The position numbers and the translations under genes are program-made. This document shows, one piece after another, positions 4,392 to 50,131 of a DNA stretch of 50,131 nucleotides; position 1 is the stretch's first letter, and the number at the start of each line of letters is the position of its first letter. This DNA comes from Bacteroidales bacterium UBA2287 (lineage in GTDB: Bacteria; Bacteroidota; Bacteroidia; Bacteroidales; Tenuifilaceae), in contig DDWL01000030.1 of the NCBI GenBank assembly GCA_002345675.1, positions 1 to 50,131 on the forward strand. The letters are read 5' to 3'. Below the pieces are notes generated by a model, which saw only the letters and a program-made list of their open reading frames with translations, ran no database searches and was not told the origin of the DNA.

Positions 4392-5187
4392 CAAAAAAAT
4401 TAAAGAGATTGTACGCGAAAAGTATTCGCAAATTGCTTTGCAAAGCCAAGACTCCGGATGCTGCTGTGGTTGTAGTTGCGGAAGCAATGAAGAAACTGTC
4501 GACTACACCCAGTTTAGCGAAAGCTACGATAGCCTTAAAGGCTACAATTCCGATGCCGACCTCGGCTTAGGCTGCGGGCTACCCACTCAGTTTGCCAAAA
4601 TTAAAAAAGGCGACACGGTAGTCGATTTAGGTTCGGGAGCGGGTAACGATTGCTTTGTGGCTCGTGCCGAAACAGGCGAAAACGGCAAGGTTATTGGAAT
4701 CGACTTTTCCGACGAAATGCTCGCTAAGGCTCGCACAAATGCCGCTAAACTTGGCTTTTCGAACATTGAATTTATTAAGGGCGACATTGAGGAACTACCC
4801 CTCGAGTCGAACATTGCCAATGTGGTGGTTAGCAACTGTGTTCTTAACCTCGTTCCCGACAAGCAAAAGGCGTTTAACCAAATATTCCGCATTTTAAAGC
4901 CACAAGGGCATTTCAGCATAAGCGATGTTGTGCTTATTGGCGAACTACCCAGCAAACTTCGGGATGCTGCCGAAATGTATGCAGGCTGCGTATCGGGAGC
5001 CATTCAAAAAAACGACTACCTCGACGTAATTCGTAATGCAGGCTTCAAAAACACTATAATTCAAAAGGAAAAAGCAATTACAATTCCCGATGAGATAATG
5101 CTAAACTTTTTAAACTTCGAAGAGCTTAAAGCCTTTAAGCAAAGCGGTGTTGGAATTTTTAGCATAACTGTTTATGGCGAGAAATAG
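4369..5187 (+). CDS. arsM: Arsenite S-adenosylmethionine methyltransferase
   Basis: SAM motif 'VVDLGSGAGNDCF'. Cys-rich N-terminus 'GCCCGCSC', with conserved Cys in 'LGCGLP', 'SNCVLNL' and 'AGCVSG'. The ATG at 4369 overlaps the arsC 3' end by 23 nt. The longer track ORF from 4183 is an artefact. Confidence 0.85.
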   Translation: MDATAANNKKIKEIVREKYSQIALQSQDSGCCCGCSCGSNEETVDYTQFSESYDSLKGYNSDADLGLGCGLPTQFAKIKKGDTVVDLGSGAGNDCFVARAETGENGKVIGIDFSDEMLAKARTNAAKLGFSNIEFIKGDIEELPLESNIANVVVSNCVLNLVPDKQKAFNQIFRILKPQGHFSISDVVLIGELPSKLRDAAEMYAGCVSGAIQKNDYLDVIRNAGFKNTIIQKEKAITIPDEIMLNFLNFEELKAFKQSGVGIFSITVYGEK

Positions 5188-5235
5188 CAAATTTATTTGT
5201 TAAGGTGCTTCACAACGACAAAAAGAATTTGTTAA

Positions 5236-5271
5236 AGTGGGTTCAGTTTAAGGCTGAACCCACTTTTTTTA
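5236..5271 (+). terminator. Rho-independent terminator of the ars operon
   Basis: Stem AGTGGGTTCAG/CTGAACCCACT followed by T7. Confidence 0.7.
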
Positions 5272-5348
5272 TTTCAGACTATTCAAAACAAAGGCTGTAG
5301 TTTAAAATAGCGTGTGTTATTTATTCACACCGCGTTTCCAACCGAGCG

Positions 5349-5733
5349 TCCCGATAGTTATCCATAGCCGTCAGGTTAAGGATGCATTTATCTGATAATC
5401 AACATCAATTTGGTGATAAAGAGAAGTAAGTATTTTAGCTACGGAGTAGCTAACTGTTTATAGAAACAAAAATTATTATTAACCAAAAGCTCCAGAGGAG
5501 CGTCCTGTAATTATGGCAACCGAGCTTGCGAGCTCAGCCCCGCCTGCGTGCTATCACTTCGGCAGGCAGGGAAACTAAACAACTATTCACAGAGCGCTCC
5601 TCTGGAGCTTAAATGCTTGTGTAAATATTTACTATAAACATAAAGCCCCGCTGGGGCAGGTTAAAACAATTGATAATATTGATTTTAAAATATTAGCCTG
5701 ACGGCTATGGATAGTTATCGGGATGCGAGCTCA
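5349..5733. mobile_element. 359-bp MITE-like element (5362-5720) inserted into a palindromic repeat unit
   Basis: 14-bp perfect TIRs CCATAGCCGTCAGG/CCTGACGGCTATGG. It is flanked by a DIRECT 8-bp repeat ATAGTTAT (5354-5361 and 5721-5728). The reconstructed empty site TCCCGATAGTTATCGGGA is identical to the solo hairpin at 9493-9510. The element is non-coding and contains a nested ~120-bp unit with 16-bp inverted repeats (5489-5504 and 5593-5608). Confidence 0.55.
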
Positions 5734-5967
5734 GCGGAGCTAAACTACATCCAAAACAACTCTTATTCTGTTAATTATCTGCACATTAAAGAAATATTTA
5801 AGGTGCTATTTGTAGTTTTTTACGACCCACACTGTACTAATCTCTGAATATCATATATTTGTTTATAATTTTTGTTTAATTTTATCTACGTTTTACAGCT
5901 TTCGTTTTTCTTTTGATTTTTTTGCACTAAAAAGTCTCAATAAAAAAGTCACCTTAAATAACTGTAG

Positions 5968-6753
5968 ATGAAAAAAGATCATAAAATCTCCGAAAAGAGT
6001 CATAACCTTTTTATCTTTCTTTCTACATTTTTTATTGCTAATGCCCTATTAGCCGAGTTTATTGGAGTTAAAATTTTATCGCTCGAAAAAATTCTCAGCA
6101 TAAATCCTGTTAACATTCCTTTTATTGGTGATTCGTTTTTAAGCCTAAACATGAGCGTTGGCGTAATAATTTGGCCAATTGTTTTTATAATATCCGATGT
6201 AATAAACGAGTATTACGGACGAAAAGGGGTTCAGAAAATAAGCTTAATTGCTGCGCTATTAATTCTTTACTCCTTTGTAATTGTTCTTTTCTCAACCGAA
6301 TCGCCTCCTGCCGATTTTTGGCTCGAAAACAACTCCGTCGACTCCAGCGGAAATGCATTTAACATTAACTTTGCTTACAACTCCATTTTCCGCCAAGGAA
6401 TGGGAATTATTGTAGGCTCCCTTACTGCATTTCTGGTTGGTCAGTTTGTCGATGCGTACACGTTTCATTACCTTCGAATTCTTACAAACCACAAGTGGCT
6501 TTGGCTTCGTGCAACTGGCTCCACTGTTGTTTCGCAACTTGTCGACAGTTTCCTAATTCTTTTCATTGCCTTTTACCTGTTGGGAAATTGGTCCTTTATC
6601 GAGGTTATTTCTGTAGGGCTAATTCAATACTTCTATAAAATTTTCATTGCAATTGTTTTAACTCCCGTAATTTACTGGATGCACATTGTAATTGACAAAT
6701 ACCTCGGCGAAGAACGAGTTAAAGAAATGATAGAAAAAGCCACAACGGCATAA
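5968..6753 (+). CDS. yhhQ: YhhQ/DUF165 family queuosine-precursor (VUT-type) transporter
   Basis: Motifs 'PIVFIISDVINEYYGRK', 'VGQFVDAYTFHYLR' and 'ATGSTVVSQLVDSFLILFIAF' match YhhQ. Confidence 0.75.
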   Translation: MKKDHKISEKSHNLFIFLSTFFIANALLAEFIGVKILSLEKILSINPVNIPFIGDSFLSLNMSVGVIIWPIVFIISDVINEYYGRKGVQKISLIAALLILYSFVIVLFSTESPPADFWLENNSVDSSGNAFNINFAYNSIFRQGMGIIVGSLTAFLVGQFVDAYTFHYLRILTNHKWLWLRATGSTVVSQLVDSFLILFIAFYLLGNWSFIEVISVGLIQYFYKIFIAIVLTPVIYWMHIVIDKYLGEERVKEMIEKATTA

Positions 6754-9387: not shown

Positions 9388-9492
9388 ATTATTATAGTCA
9401 ATTAAATATTTTTATTCGTCTGATTGTTAGAATTATGCTTAATGATTGTCTGCTTAGTTATTATTTTTATTATCATACATTTGCGCCTTTGC

Positions 9493-9510
9493 TCCCGATA
9501 GTTATCGGGA
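9493..9510. repeat. Solo copy of the palindromic hairpin repeat TCCCGATAGTTATCGGGA
   Basis: Perfect 7-bp arms. The same unit recurs at 37680-37697, 46213-46230 and 50081-50097 (degenerate), and is the split target at 5349/5721. Confidence 0.6.
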
Positions 9511-9557
9511 TCTGCGTGAAACAAAAATTTACCCAAGCATTTTCATTATAACCCTTT

Positions 9558-33460: not shown

Positions 33461-33534
33461 CTCCTCTTCTAGGACTTGAACCTAGGACCCCATGATTAAC
33501 AGTCATGTGCTCTAACCAACTGAGCTAAAGAGGA
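33461..33534 (-). tRNA. tRNA-Asn (anticodon GTT)
   Basis: The reverse complement folds as a cloverleaf with acceptor TCCTCTT/AAGAGGA, D-arm GCTC-AGTTGGTTA-GAGC, anticodon loop CTGTTAA, T-arm CTAGG-TTCAAGT-CCTAG and discriminator G. CCA is not encoded. Confidence 0.85.
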
Positions 33535-37572: not shown

Positions 37573-37697
37573 AAATCTGTTTTAAAAAGTTGGGCAAATT
37601 TACTTATATGTAATTCAATGTCGTTTATTTAAGAATAATTATCGCAATCATGCAATACCTATTAAAAAAAAACCACAAATCCCGATAACTATCGGGA

Positions 37698-37783
37698 CAC
37701 AAAGAGAAAACAAAGAGCCACAAAGAAAAAGTCTTTATATAATCTACTTTGTGAACTTTGAGAAAAACTTCGTGCTCTTTGTG
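37698..37783. repeat. Second copy of the CACAAAG-arm MITE-like element, abutting a hairpin repeat unit (37680-37697)
   Basis: ACAAAGAGAAAACAAAGAGCCACAAAG ... CTTTGTGAACTTTGAGAAAAACTTCGTGCTCTTTGTG. Confidence 0.45.
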
Positions 37784-37902
37784 ATTAAACTTCCCTTAGA
37801 TTATAGTTAGTCTCTTTTTATTCTAACTAAAAGACATTGATTGATTGATTTATAATTACTGAAACCAGTAACGCAACCAACAATTCAATGTTCACTATTA
37901 TT

Positions 37903-38972: not shown

Positions 38973-40034
38973 TTAGTACCTATTCCTATTGGCAAACCAT
39001 ACCAGCGAAAGCATTACAGGCACTTCAACTAAAACGCCAACAACGGTAACCAAAGCAGCAGGCGACTGCAGTCCAAACAGCGCTATGGCAACCGCTACTG
39101 CTAATTCAAAAAAGTTACTGGCACCAATCATGGCAGCTGGCCCGCATATAGGGTATGACAGTTTTAATAATTTTCTCCCACCATACCAAGCAATAAAAAA
39201 GATAAAGTAGGTTTGAATTACCAATGGAACAGCGGCCAAAAGAATAATTAGCGGATTGTTTACAATGTTTTGACCCTGAAAAGCAAACAGAAAGATAAGC
39301 GTAACTAGCAGCGCAATTATACTTACTGGCTTAAGCTTGGGTAAAAAGATGTTTTTAAACCAATCTTCTCCCTTGCTTCGCAACAATAGTCTTTGGGTAA
39401 TAACCCCTGCAACTAGCGGAACAACAACAAATATAAGCACGCTATATACAAGTGTATCGTAAGGTATTTTAATATCGGTAATGCCCAAAAGCAAACCAAC
39501 AATGGGAACAAAAGCCACAAGGATAATTAGGTCGTTAACCGAAACCTGAACCAGCGTGTAGTTGGGATCGCCATCGGAAAGGTAGCTCCAAACAAATACC
39601 ATGGCGGTACAAGGAGCAGCACCAAGCAGAATAGCGCCAGCAATGTATTCGCCTGCCAAAGCAGGATCGATCCAAGCCTGATAAATCTTTGCGAAGAAAA
39701 TCCACGCAAAAAAAGCCATAGTAAACGGCTTAATTAGCCAGTTAATAACAACGGTCCAAATAACCCCTTTGGGTTTTTTCCCAACCTGCTTAATGCTAGT
39801 GAAATCGATTTGAAGCATCATGGGGTAAATCATTAGCCATATTAATACGGCAACGGGGATGTTTACCTTTGCAATTTCGAGGCTGCTTACAATAGCAATG
39901 CTGTCGCCAGCAAAGTGCCCAATTACTATTCCTATAATTATGCAAAGAGCAACCCATAGGGTTAGATACTTATCGAAAAAGCTAATATTCTTTTTCGATT
40001 TATCAGCAGCTACTACATCTCTTAACTCACTCAT
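38973..40034 (-). CDS. acr3: ACR3-family arsenite efflux transporter
   Basis: 'FFDKYLTLWVALCIIIGIVIGHF' and the overall 10-TM BART-superfamily pattern. The start is taken at 'MSELRD'. Confidence 0.85.
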   Translation of the reverse strand: MSELRDVVAADKSKKNISFFDKYLTLWVALCIIIGIVIGHFAGDSIAIVSSLEIAKVNIPVAVLIWLMIYPMMLQIDFTSIKQVGKKPKGVIWTVVINWLIKPFTMAFFAWIFFAKIYQAWIDPALAGEYIAGAILLGAAPCTAMVFVWSYLSDGDPNYTLVQVSVNDLIILVAFVPIVGLLLGITDIKIPYDTLVYSVLIFVVVPLVAGVITQRLLLRSKGEDWFKNIFLPKLKPVSIIALLVTLIFLFAFQGQNIVNNPLIILLAAVPLVIQTYFIFFIAWYGGRKLLKLSYPICGPAAMIGASNFFELAVAVAIALFGLQSPAALVTVVGVLVEVPVMLSLVWFANRNRY

Positions 40035-40065
40035 AGTATTTGTTTTAAATTTTGATATGTGGCAA

Positions 40066-40430
40066 CTAAACAGAAATTGTTTCACGATAAAACTTATAGA
40101 ATTGTTCCTTACTTAAATCCCTAACCCTTCGGAACTCGCTCAAAATAAACTCATCGGTTCCTGTTGCATGGCTTGGGTCCTCGAAGCCAATATGCAAGCG
40201 ATGTTTTACCTTTCCAAAAAATGCAGGGCAGGTTTCGTTGGCATCGTCGCAAACGGTGATAACGTAGTCCCACTCCTCGTTAATGTACTGGTCGACCATT
40301 TTGGGGTGTGGTGGCTAATGTCGATACCCACTTCGCTCATCACCTTAATGGCTTTAGGGTTTACCTGCGTAGCAGGTTTGGTTCCTAACGGGACAGTAAT
40401 TTTAAATGCGGTTACCCTACTCAATGGCAA
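40066..40430 (-). pseudogene. arsC: Arsenate reductase (LMW-PTP type) remnant: 5'-truncated and frameshifted
   Basis: The C-terminal frame 'DYVITVCDDANETCPAF...' and the middle frame 'LGTKPATQVNPKAIKVMSEVGIDISHHTPK' match the intact ArsC at 3945-4391. The P-loop CX5R region is absent (a stop lies just upstream). The frame changes at CCCCAAAA (~40300). Confidence 0.7.
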
Positions 40431-45458: not shown

Positions 45459-46121
45459 ATGAAAACATGGGACGACCTTAAATACAGCACAATTAGTGTT
45501 TACAGAAACAATGAAATTGCCGAAGGAGCTTACCTTCTTTCGTTTAAACGAAACTTTAACTTTGTGGCAGGGCAAGTAGTAGCGCTTGGAGTTACACCAA
45601 CTATTGCTCCTCGCCTTTACAGCATTGCAAGCGGCGAAAACGATGAATTTATCGAAATTTTATATTCCGAAAAATTGGACGGATCGCTTACACCCATGCT
45701 TTCGCTATTAAAACCTGGTGACAACCTTATGGTTTCGGAACCATTTGGGACATTTACACAAACCTCAAAGTCAGATGTTTACATTGCTGCCGGCACAGGA
45801 ATTGCTCCATTTATGTCGAGAATACGATCGGCAAAAGCCGAAAACCCCACAGTTATTCACGGTGCAAGCTACCCCGAGTTTTTCTACTATAATAAAGAGT
45901 TCGAAAATTTTGGAAGAAACTACATTCGCTGCTGCTCCCGTTGTAGCGACGACCAACTGTTTCAGGGACGAGTAACCGACTATGTGAAGCAGTGGAGTAA
46001 CCTCGACCCCAATAAAAAGTATTACCTTTGCGGCAGCGCCGAAATGGTTGTTGAAACTCGCGATGCTCTAATTGCTAAGGGCGTACCATTCGCAAACATT
46101 AACGCGGAGATTTATTTTTAG
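45459..46121 (+). CDS. Ferredoxin-NADP reductase-like FAD/NAD(P)-binding oxidoreductase
   Basis: FAD motif 'RLYSIAS' and NAD motif 'AAGTGIAPF', with C-terminal 'YYLCGSAEM'. Confidence 0.7.
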   Translation: MKTWDDLKYSTISVYRNNEIAEGAYLLSFKRNFNFVAGQVVALGVTPTIAPRLYSIASGENDEFIEILYSEKLDGSLTPMLSLLKPGDNLMVSEPFGTFTQTSKSDVYIAAGTGIAPFMSRIRSAKAENPTVIHGASYPEFFYYNKEFENFGRNYIRCCSRCSDDQLFQGRVTDYVKQWSNLDPNKKYYLCGSAEMVVETRDALIAKGVPFANINAEIYF

Positions 46122-46142
46122 AATTAAACGCAAAGAGGAAAT

Positions 46143-46166
46143 TCACGCAAAGGCGCAGAGACGCAA
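46143..46166. repeat. Dispersed repeat copy (direct orientation)
   Basis: TCACGCAAAGGCGCAGAGACGCAA. Hairpin unit TCCTGATAACTATCGGGA at 46213-46230. Confidence 0.5.
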
Positions 46167-46290
46167 CTTTTTTGCTTTTTAATATTTAACGCAAAGAGTA
46201 AGTTCACGCAAATCCTGATAACTATCGGGAGCAGAGGCGCAAATAAAGTCGAATTTATGTACAGATTTTTTCAATAACTATATATGACTA

Positions 46291-49901: not shown

Positions 49902-50080
49902 AAAAGAAAAATATTTAACCAATGAAAGCCTCAGCCGTAATGTGTTGGGGCTTTTTACACTTATGTGATTGGCTAAAAAGACTTAAAAAATAACCACAAA
50001 GGTCACTAAGATTTACGCAAAGCACACAAAGCAACGCATGCACGAGTATTAAACTTTCTATACTTTGCATCTCCTCTGTA

Positions 50081-50097
50081 CACGATAATTATCGGGA
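50081..50097. repeat. Degenerate copy of the hairpin repeat (CACGATAATTATCGGGA)
   Basis: Palindromic core CGATAATTATCG. Preceded by CACAAAG-type sequence at 49985-50020. Confidence 0.4.
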
Positions 50098-50131
50098 TTC
50101 GCGTTATTCCTGTTTTCCTCGCTGGGTCACC

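Follow-up and report, generated by a model that had tools for sequence, protein, structure and literature searches.

Non-autonomous derivatives of the insertion sequence (IS) IS231, such as the MIC231 cassettes of Bacillus cereus, are mobilised in trans. MIC231 is cited within the same work in which the IS231-like part of the IS4 family is characterised by CAT tips, repeats of 10-12 bp and the end signature CAT-------AA--TAA (Table 1, PMC2266710). Another member of the IS4 family, ISRm22 of Sinorhizobium meliloti (IS4Sa), has all of its copies inside REP sequences, on the axis of the palindrome, and some of these copies are accompanied by imperfect direct repeats, which the authors attributed to recombination between copies (PMC1525189; PMC2266710). 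Insertion into short repeated extragenic palindromes has also been described for IS1397 and ISKpn1 of the IS3 family and for ISPpu9, ISPpu10 and IS621 of the IS110 family (PMC1525189). The latter two groups differ from the element described below in their chemistry, which involves a DDE enzyme with a frameshift (IS3) or a DEDD enzyme with a guide RNA (IS110), and their duplications are different or absent. Tn10, with its IS10, is in turn reported by Halling and Kleckner in 1982 to prefer the symmetric target NGCTNAGCN.

Here we describe a short non-coding insert in the genome of Bacteroidales bacterium UBA2287 (Bacteroidota; contig DDWL01000030.1). The stretch of DNA analysed, hereafter the window, comprises 50,131 nucleotides. 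The insert at 5363-5709 is, with a probability of roughly 87%, a non-autonomous deletion derivative (MITE) of the IS231-like group of IS4-family ISs, which would have been mobilised in trans and would have produced a 10-bp duplication at the symmetric centre of a hairpin. In its position it resembles ISRm22, another case of an IS4-family element inserted at a fixed position on the axis of a repeated extragenic palindrome, as are both copies in the host genome. Unlike the window MITE, ISRm22 is autonomous, has 6-bp direct repeats and resides in an alphaproteobacterium (PMC1525189).

The insert and the interrupted hairpin

The features of the insert and of the hairpin repeat to which its target belongs are as follows.

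5349-5362, + strand: left half of the interrupted 18-bp hairpin (TCCCGATAGTTAT, then C)
5353-5362, + strand: target-site duplication of 10 bp, left-hand copy, GATAGTTATC, with the 8-bp ATAGTTAT as its core
5363-5709, no strand: body of the MITE, 347 bp, non-coding, probable IS4-family (IS231-like) derivative
5363-5380, + strand: left terminal inverted repeat (TIR) CATAGCCGTCAGG, 13 bp and perfect, with the conserved TTAAG
5692-5709, - strand: right TIR, which reads CATAGCCGTCAGGCTAA on this strand
5710-5719, + strand: target-site duplication of 10 bp, right-hand copy, GATAGTTATC
5710-5723, + strand: right half of the interrupted 18-bp hairpin (G, then ATAGTTATCGGGA)
9493-9510, + strand: solo uninterrupted hairpin TCCCGATAGTTATCGGGA, analogue of the empty site
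37680-37697, - strand: solo hairpin in the opposite orientation
46213-46230, - strand: solo hairpin with one mismatch
50080-50097, no strand: degenerate solo hairpin with three mismatches

There are just two occurrences of the 14-mer CCATAGCCGTCAGG in the 50-kb window, one at 5362-5375 on the + strand and one at 5697-5710 on the - strand, where chance would give 0.08. The 8-bp ATAGTTAT is found on both sides in direct orientation (5354-5361 and 5711-5718), and the direct repeat extends to 10 bp, reading GATAGTTATC. The original prediction had described a 359-bp insert with 14-bp TIRs and an 8-bp direct target duplication. Its length has to be corrected to 349 bp (5362-5710, limits that take in one target base per side) or to 347 bp with the refined tips (5363-5709). 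The TIRs are indeed perfect and present at the two ends only, but the tip is CAT and they thus measure 13 bp; likewise, the direct repeat is real but amounts to 10 bp after comparison with the family. The reading with an 8-bp duplication and 14-bp TIRs was therefore abandoned for one with 10 and 13 bp on account of the family tips, the family duplications, an IS of Clostridium and the symmetry of the target, all of which are treated below.

No open reading frame of at least 40 amino acids lies wholly within the insert, and a 46-aa frame merely starts at its right edge, in keeping with the non-coding nature proposed earlier. With a size below approximately 600 bp and no transposase gene, TIRs and a flanking duplication, the insert has the properties by which a MITE is recognised. 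When it is excised in silico together with one copy of the repeat, the 18-bp hairpin TCCCGATAGTTATCGGGA is restored, identical in every base to the solo hairpin at 9493-9510 as had been foreseen, and both readings of the tip (13/10 and 14/8) restore the same empty site. Allowing up to three mismatches, this hairpin has ten strand matches in the window, two of which are the interrupted halves, against 0.01 expected. The comparison with the solo sites at 9493, 37680 and 46213 that had been suggested was carried out, and an uninterrupted hairpin is present at each of them (at 46213 with one mismatch). Flanks of the other solo hairpins in the window are unrelated to those of the MITE.

The hairpin is close to a perfect palindrome at its centre, where a direct and an inverted repeat differ by only two bases, so that the window copy alone leaves the duplication unproven and the family data are needed to settle it. 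The earlier reasoning, that the repeats are direct and hence a duplication, was accordingly insufficient for a single copy with a GT/GT centre, while its conclusion is upheld by family pairs with duplications of 9-11 bp. The same palindromic target, in which the orientation hangs on two central bases, could be taken to speak for a palindrome that arose by chance or was made locally, for example by foldback duplication, with no transposition at all, and some family members (L191, L141 and L154) do have inverted flanks. Such an origin has next to no probability, given that a 14-mer expected 0.08 times in the window sits exactly at the two ends, that the restored empty site corresponds to a separate family of repeats and that the same 18-nt terminus is carried by many unrelated elements with 9-11 bp direct duplications of unrelated sequence. 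The scan for the terminus family, with the transposases and duplications that it brought to light, effectively refutes it.

As to the gene context, genes for ArsR, an ArsC of the low-molecular-weight (LMW) phosphatase type and ArsM are followed by a terminator at 5234-5266, and the Vut_1 (YhhQ) gene lies downstream of the insert (5968-6753). The location between the ars operon terminator and yhhQ was thus correctly recognised from the start. At this locus in the relatives L008 and L009 (approximately 87-91% nucleotide identity), arsM is followed by an acr3 gene and the terminator is the same, and a whole block is replaced by unrelated sequence of approximately 105 bp (L008) or 120 bp (L009). 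This block and the elements that surround the insert are listed here.

5277-5763: block of host repeat unit and MITE, 487 bp, missing in the closest relatives
5293-5304, + strand: left arm GGCTGTAGTTTA of the outer 12-nt inverted repeat, between whose arms the host repeat unit lies
5339-5348, + strand: left near flank CAACCGAGCG, common to the flank of copy 2 and to the internal unit at 5517-5538
5724-5735, + strand: right near flank TGCGAGCTCAGC, repeated exactly inside the element at 5527-5538
5741-5752, + strand: right arm TAAACTACATCC of the outer 12-nt inverted repeat
Predicted empty-site junctions: CGTCCCGATAGTTATCGGGATGCGAG at locus 1 and CGTCCCGATAGTTATCGAAATGCGAG at locus 2 (the site of copy 2)

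The terminus family and its target

A metagenome scan with CCATAGCCGTCAGGYTAA yielded at least 120 loci with at least 133 ends from very different environments. Among the matches listed, conservation of the terminus extends through CATAGCCGTCAGGYTAAG and gives way to unrelated interiors; many of the ends coincide with contig ends, as is typical of repeats, and paired ends delimit short elements of 86-479 bp or long ones of 1.43-2.0 kb. Species-representative genomes of the GTDB collection, to which the host genome does not belong, as the lack of a self-match shows, were scanned as well with a longer left-end pattern and gave eight loci, all of them in Bacteroidota MAGs, among them L251 and L258 (see below). 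Members of the family come from Bacteroidota MAGs and from metagenomes that are termite-gut, human-gut, marine or cyanobacteria-like. One family end (L171) from an unrelated metagenome lies in the same hairpin as the window element. The 14-mer TIR alone proved too unspecific as a probe, as it gave single chance matches only among the matches listed for viral contigs. When the interior of the element was compared by BLAST with 240 pattern-matched loci from viral and metagenome sequences (L011-L250), the ends alone matched, and a literature search for the terminus sequence retrieved no paper.

The same 18-nt terminus bounds transposase-encoding elements of 1.43-1.57 kb, namely L131, L167 and L258. 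The transposases of L131 and L167 score 204 and 190 bits, respectively, on NCBIfam NF033592 (IS4 family; cut-off 115) and also match Pfam DDE_Tnp_1. L258 is a complete IS of 1461 bp in a Sporocytophaga MAG, and proteins homologous to its transposase bear the name 'IS4 family transposase'. The motif Y-x2-R-x3-E-x6-K is legible in L258 (YRYRWQIELVFKTWK) and in L167 (YSLRWQVEIMFKAWK), and in L131 its last K is replaced by E. Transposase-encoding ISs with the same TIRs, for which the original prediction had recommended a search as possible parents, have thus been found in the IS4 family, although in other organisms; approximately 70 kb of host DNA contained no autonomous IS4-family partner. The InsG protein of E. 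coli IS4 was considered as a close relative of the partner transposases and discarded, as it gives a weak local match only, despite the similar TIRs.

The likeness to these ISs continues inward from the termini. The left subterminal 41-45 bp of the window element resemble transposase-5' ends, with 90% identity to L251 (the left 41 bp of this 436-bp MITE) and 87% to L161, and over 40-45 bp the right side of the element resembles the transposase-3' ends of such ISs as the left does the 5' ends. A derivative formed by internal deletion would be expected to look like this.

Among ends picked up independently of the search pattern, CAT is preceded by different bases (C in 13, G in 8, T in 3 and A in 1), and CATAGCCGTCAGG is almost invariant. 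An annotated IS4-family IS on plasmid pCM008-A of Clostridium tagluense has perfect 18-nt TIRs, CATAGCCATCAAGCTAAG, which match the window terminus at 16 of 18 positions; they start exactly at CAT, are preceded by A and are accompanied by an 11-bp duplication. If the CAT tip is assumed, 14 pairs including the window element have duplications of 9-11 bp, mostly 10 bp, among the matches listed. Of the 31 TIR pairs of other loci, 17 have no clean duplication, and among these 17 at least seven have inverted flanks; copies that had entered one and the same repeat family may have recombined with each other, which would account for this pattern.

The 10 nucleotides before CAT are themselves palindromic. 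Across 143 distinct flanks they contain 2.14 pairs, compared with 1.28 for the controls, which corresponds to a z of 10.5 (6.7 when the dominant metagenome is left out); the excess is weaker at a length of nine and absent at 8, 11 and 12. The consensus of the flanks before the tip is GGCTnnAGCC. The variable base before CAT, the tip of the Clostridium IS, the 9-11 bp duplications and the symmetry over 10 nucleotides together set the limits of the element at 5363-5709 and the lengths of its TIRs and duplication at 13 and 10 bp, respectively. Throughout the family, the direct repeat at the flanks behaves like a target duplication. The consensus recalls the preferred target of Tn10 and IS10: it contains GCT...AGC with two-fold symmetry, and this site falls within the segment that is duplicated. 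Tn10, however, duplicates 9 bp and not 10, and the window target GATAGTTATC shares with its site only the outer G...C and the symmetry.

Compared with the IS231 subgroup, the window element has the same CAT tip and the TAA at positions 15-17, but positions 11-12 are AG and not AA. The 10-bp duplication lies within the 10-12 bp range of the subgroup and is a better fit than the 14/8 reading. The partner transposases are approximately 33% identical, over more than 80% of the protein, to IS4-family elements of Bacillus and Clostridium, which were the best plasmid matches. Judged from its ends, its duplication and these transposase matches, an assignment of the window element to the IS231-like subgroup would fit. 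It differs from IS231 and MIC231 in that the host belongs to Bacteroidota, the terminus CATAGCCGTCAGGYTAAG is a strongly conserved variant of its own and a passenger gene is absent.

The second copy and the interior of the element

Exact matches of its proteins assign the window to an uncultured Bacteroidales/Tenuifilaceae-like organism, DNA of which is also present in the metagenome assemblies ENA ERZ27315057, JGI 3300040971 and others. A second copy of the element was recovered from the same samples as the window, in five assemblies (contigs L266 and L267), and measures 351 bp (L267 4231-4581; sample ERZ27315057, contig k141_133639, a 49-kb contig). It lies between a response-regulator gene and an AhpC/thioredoxin-like gene and shares with the window copy the hairpin, the orientation and the GATAGTTATC on either side. 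The question of further copies is thereby answered by this copy and by the many family members elsewhere. Overall the two copies are 77% identical, with 100% identity in the first 43 nucleotides and 74% in the rest, and copy 2 has one mutation in its right TIR. The divergence of the interior and the mutated TIR indicate that the copies are old, and it is doubtful that the element would be active at present.

A repeat in two copies explains the breaks of assemblies with short k at 5368 and 5695. Contig breaks at the ends of the element had been regarded as a sign of many copies, a notion that was dropped, as a two-copy repeat suffices at k = 31. On one contig (JGI 3300037043; L263) an arsM gene identical to that of the window is followed by the MITE and then by the response-regulator gene, which joins the two host copies. 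The copies are 100% identical over a 67-nt stretch that runs from the left flank into the left end of the element, and this contig is either the product of genuine recombination in that stretch or a chimera created during assembly.

Identity between the near flanks of the copies amounts to 93% on the left (27 nt) and 85% on the right (26 nt). In view of these figures, the mobile or duplicated unit might be larger than the MITE, and a single insertion of the IS4 type might have been followed by copying of the host repeat unit, hairpin and MITE together to locus 2, by the machinery of another element, recombination or template switching. Apart from the flanks, which exceed the 77% of the MITE, the identical duplication and orientation in both copies are in accord with such a course, as is the outer 12-nt inverted repeat around the host unit. 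The flanking unit CAACCGAGCG...TGCGAGCTCAGC has furthermore never been seen empty, the solo hairpins of the window having unrelated flanks. As the flanks are as conserved as the element and no empty unit was seen, a composite duplication accounts for copy 2 as well as independent transposition does. Beyond approximately 27 nt of flank, however, identity falls to 41-64%, and outer terminal repeats or a duplication are absent. Moreover, the IS4-family ISRm22 is known to insert precisely and always at a given position of a repeat family (PMC1525189), and the identical 67-nt stretch looks like gene conversion, which would inflate the identity of the flanks. We regard the larger unit as possible but rather unlikely, and it concerns the origin of copy 2 alone, not the nature of the element.

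Comparison with related genomes bears on both loci. At locus 2, relatives have a glycosyltransferase gene directly after the response-regulator gene, and the closest strain (L282) already possesses copy 2. An empty allele with an intact hairpin was found in none of the close relatives at either locus, where the whole block is absent or the synteny is different.

Inside the element the following features were delineated.

5435-5453: hairpin TTAGCTACGGAGTAGCTAA, with conserved stems and a loop that differs in copy 2
5487-5513, + strand: left arm of the inner inverted repeat
5517-5538, + strand: internal version of the element's own flanking unit, lacking the hairpin, CAACCGAGCT|TGCGAGCTCAGC, in both genomic copies
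5539-5571 (approximately), + strand: G+C-rich hairpin CCCGCCTGCG...GGCAGGCAGGG, in the window copy only, copy 2 being unrelated here
5584-5610, + strand: right arm of the inner inverted repeat
5645-5657: hairpin GCCCCGCTGGGGC, kept in both copies and terminator-like on the - strand

The arms of the inner inverted repeat are 27 nt long and 85% complementary, with a perfect 14-nt core (5489-5502 and 5595-5608). A nested unit of approximately 120 bp with 16-bp inverted repeats had been described before; the inverted repeat is genuine, but its arms and perfect core have the lengths given here, and a hairpin placed at 5550-5576 is in fact the G+C-rich one at approximately 5539-5571. The inner palindrome is present, as stated, but not as a nested element of its own: since it occurs in both copies, it belongs to the body of the element and is not a later insertion into the window copy. 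No additional copies of the inner-repeat core or of the hairpin-less flank unit were found in the window. It is an odd feature that outside the element the arrangement is CAACCGAGCG, then hairpin and MITE, then TGCGAGCTCAGC, while both copies contain the hairpin-less CAACCGAGCT|TGCGAGCTCAGC inside. This internal copy of the flanking unit hints at nesting among these repeats.

So much secondary structure could also point to a structured non-coding RNA, in which a long closing stem, unbroken on the + strand by virtue of two G.U pairs, would surround several hairpins. The predicted fold is very stable (-163.6 and -161.3 kcal/mol for the two strands, z of approximately -11.6 against shuffled sequences), and the GT/GT centre can form G.U pairs on the + strand only, making a continuous stem of 27-34 bp possible. 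Both strands fold equally well, however, as DNA palindromes should. Between the copies, 93 of the 127 predicted pairs are unchanged and 21 are broken, another eight being gapped, four changed on one side and still paired and one compensatory. The differences in the arms of the inner inverted repeat are not compensatory either, and the central hairpin is missing from copy 2. Apart from one tRNA in another part of the window, Rfam searches at gathering and permissive thresholds gave nothing but hairpin noise below threshold; for the element nothing exceeded the threshold, the best match beneath it being a plant microRNA model with 27.5 bits against a gathering score of 55 bits. Finally, transposase-encoding ISs have the same termini as the element. 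The non-compensatory changes and the lack of an Rfam match rule out the RNA for practical purposes, and we consider it highly improbable.

Proposed origin and significance

The designation of the insert as a MITE in the original prediction is thus borne out by the second genomic copy, the IS4-family ISs with the same termini, the duplication throughout the family and the repeated hairpin as target. Under the proposed mechanism, a DDE transposase supplied in trans would bind and cleave the element at the 13-bp TIRs CATAGCCGTCAGG, the YTAAG next to them and the subterminal motifs. By analogy with the chemistry of Tn5, Tn10 and IS231A, this enzyme would excise the element by cut-and-paste and join both 3' ends to the target strands with a 10-bp stagger, which would give rise to the duplication GATAGTTATC. 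A transposase dimer would be expected to favour a two-fold symmetric target of 10 bp; the centre of the 18-bp hairpin TCCCGATAGTTATCGGGA offers such a target, which may be the reason for the insertion at its axis of symmetry. Mobilisation in trans is probable on this analysis.

A broader view is more tentative. The elements that end in CATAGCCGTCAGGYTAAG could constitute a very large lineage of ISs and MITEs across phyla, specialised in the axes of REP-like hairpins, whose MITEs seed self-nested 'onion' palindromes and recombination substrates; we think this rather less probable than not. Such palindromes would be seeded, were this the case, because the MITEs carry hairpins of this kind and copies of their own flanking unit internally. 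In the same connection, the contig joining both host copies suggests that MITEs may act as recombination substrates.

For the annotation of the host genome, two highly structured intergenic segments of approximately 350 bp represent mobile DNA and neither an RNA gene nor a regulator, and an element in two copies accounts for the assembly breaks at the locus. The 18-nt probe CATAGCCGTCAGGYTAAG retrieves a widespread IS4-family lineage and its MITEs from metagenomes, a lineage that makes duplications of approximately 10 bp at a two-fold symmetric target. An example from Bacteroidota is thereby added to the known habit of some ISs to land in repeated palindromes. The MITE is real, yet it is ordinary bacterial mobile DNA, and the current view of transposition is unchanged by it.

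Possible nesting of the MITE interior and its flanks

The miniature element (MITE) copy located between the arsR-arsC-arsM operon and yhhQ (copy 1, window 5363-5709) shares sequence with its own surroundings. The matches between its interior and the outer flanks are as follows:
5339-5348 plus 5724-5735, outside flanks, found in uninterrupted form in the interior at 5517-5538
5322-5334, short direct match to 5584-5596
5577-5587, short direct match to 5754-5764
The outer block may be a relative of the MITE's own core, in which case the arrangement would be one of self-nesting.

Related elements in other metagenomes

Among the matches listed, metagenome Ga0272440 contains dozens of different MITEs with the conserved family terminus (e.g., L133, L172, L174, L187, L191, and L240). 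Their insertion site is a palindrome of the GGGCTAAAGCCC type, and the same palindromes are also found inside many of these elements. Some of them are arranged head-to-head with one target copy in common (L172), and L191 is a near-perfect foldback of 86 bp (84 bp with CAT tips), the flanks of which are inverted. In the termite-gut loci (e.g., L154 122-2125, L165, L156, and L169) a conserved motif, GCTCGGCGTAG(C/T)..., precedes many of the ends among the matches listed and is also found solo, as the hairpin GTAGTCTCTGACTAC. The flanks of the 2.0-kb termite-gut element in L154 are inverted and not direct repeats.

The two MITE loci in related strains and contigs

In a contig retrieved as L263 and L271 (JGI 3300037043 Ga0377233_052936), the arsM flank of copy 1 runs directly into the response-regulator flank of copy 2 (the second copy of the MITE in the same genome, L267). 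The junction corresponds approximately to window 5339-5405, and the switch falls within a 67-nt stretch identical between the two copies. Either the assembly produced a chimera here, or the two MITE copies truly recombined with each other.

A contig of a sister strain (L282 536-1174; ENA ERZ27239244 k141_63603) displays zero differences from L267 over approximately 640 nt spanning copy 2. The flanking response-regulator gene is approximately 4% and the downstream gene approximately 13% different. Recent exchange or conversion of the segment is possible, as is strain mixing in the assembly. Another contig of the same assembly (L006 1-70; ENA ERZ27239244 k141_52329) carries a yhhQ 99% identical to that of the window. 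Upstream of 5815 it departs from the window and resembles the upstream sequence of L008, a close relative without the 5277-5763 block; the contig is too short to tell on copy 1.

The ars genes and solo hairpins of the window

The arsR-arsC-arsM operon of the window has no acr3 (SBF-family) arsenite efflux gene (window 5187-5233 versus L008 1518-2645). In the closest relatives acr3 is located between arsM and the terminator common to them and the window. A second ars-like cluster is found elsewhere in the window (38981-40385, minus strand), with 73% identity to the acr3 of the relatives and 71% to arsC. The sole Rfam match in the window at the gathering threshold is a tRNA gene (33461-33534, minus strand).

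Short repeated motifs (e.g., CACAAAG, CGCAAAG, and CTTTGTG) surround the solo copies of the 18-bp hairpin in which both MITE copies sit (window 9470-9520, 37640-37790, 46100-46240, and 49990-50100). Together, the solo hairpins and these motifs look like a broader intergenic repeat family in this Bacteroidota genome.
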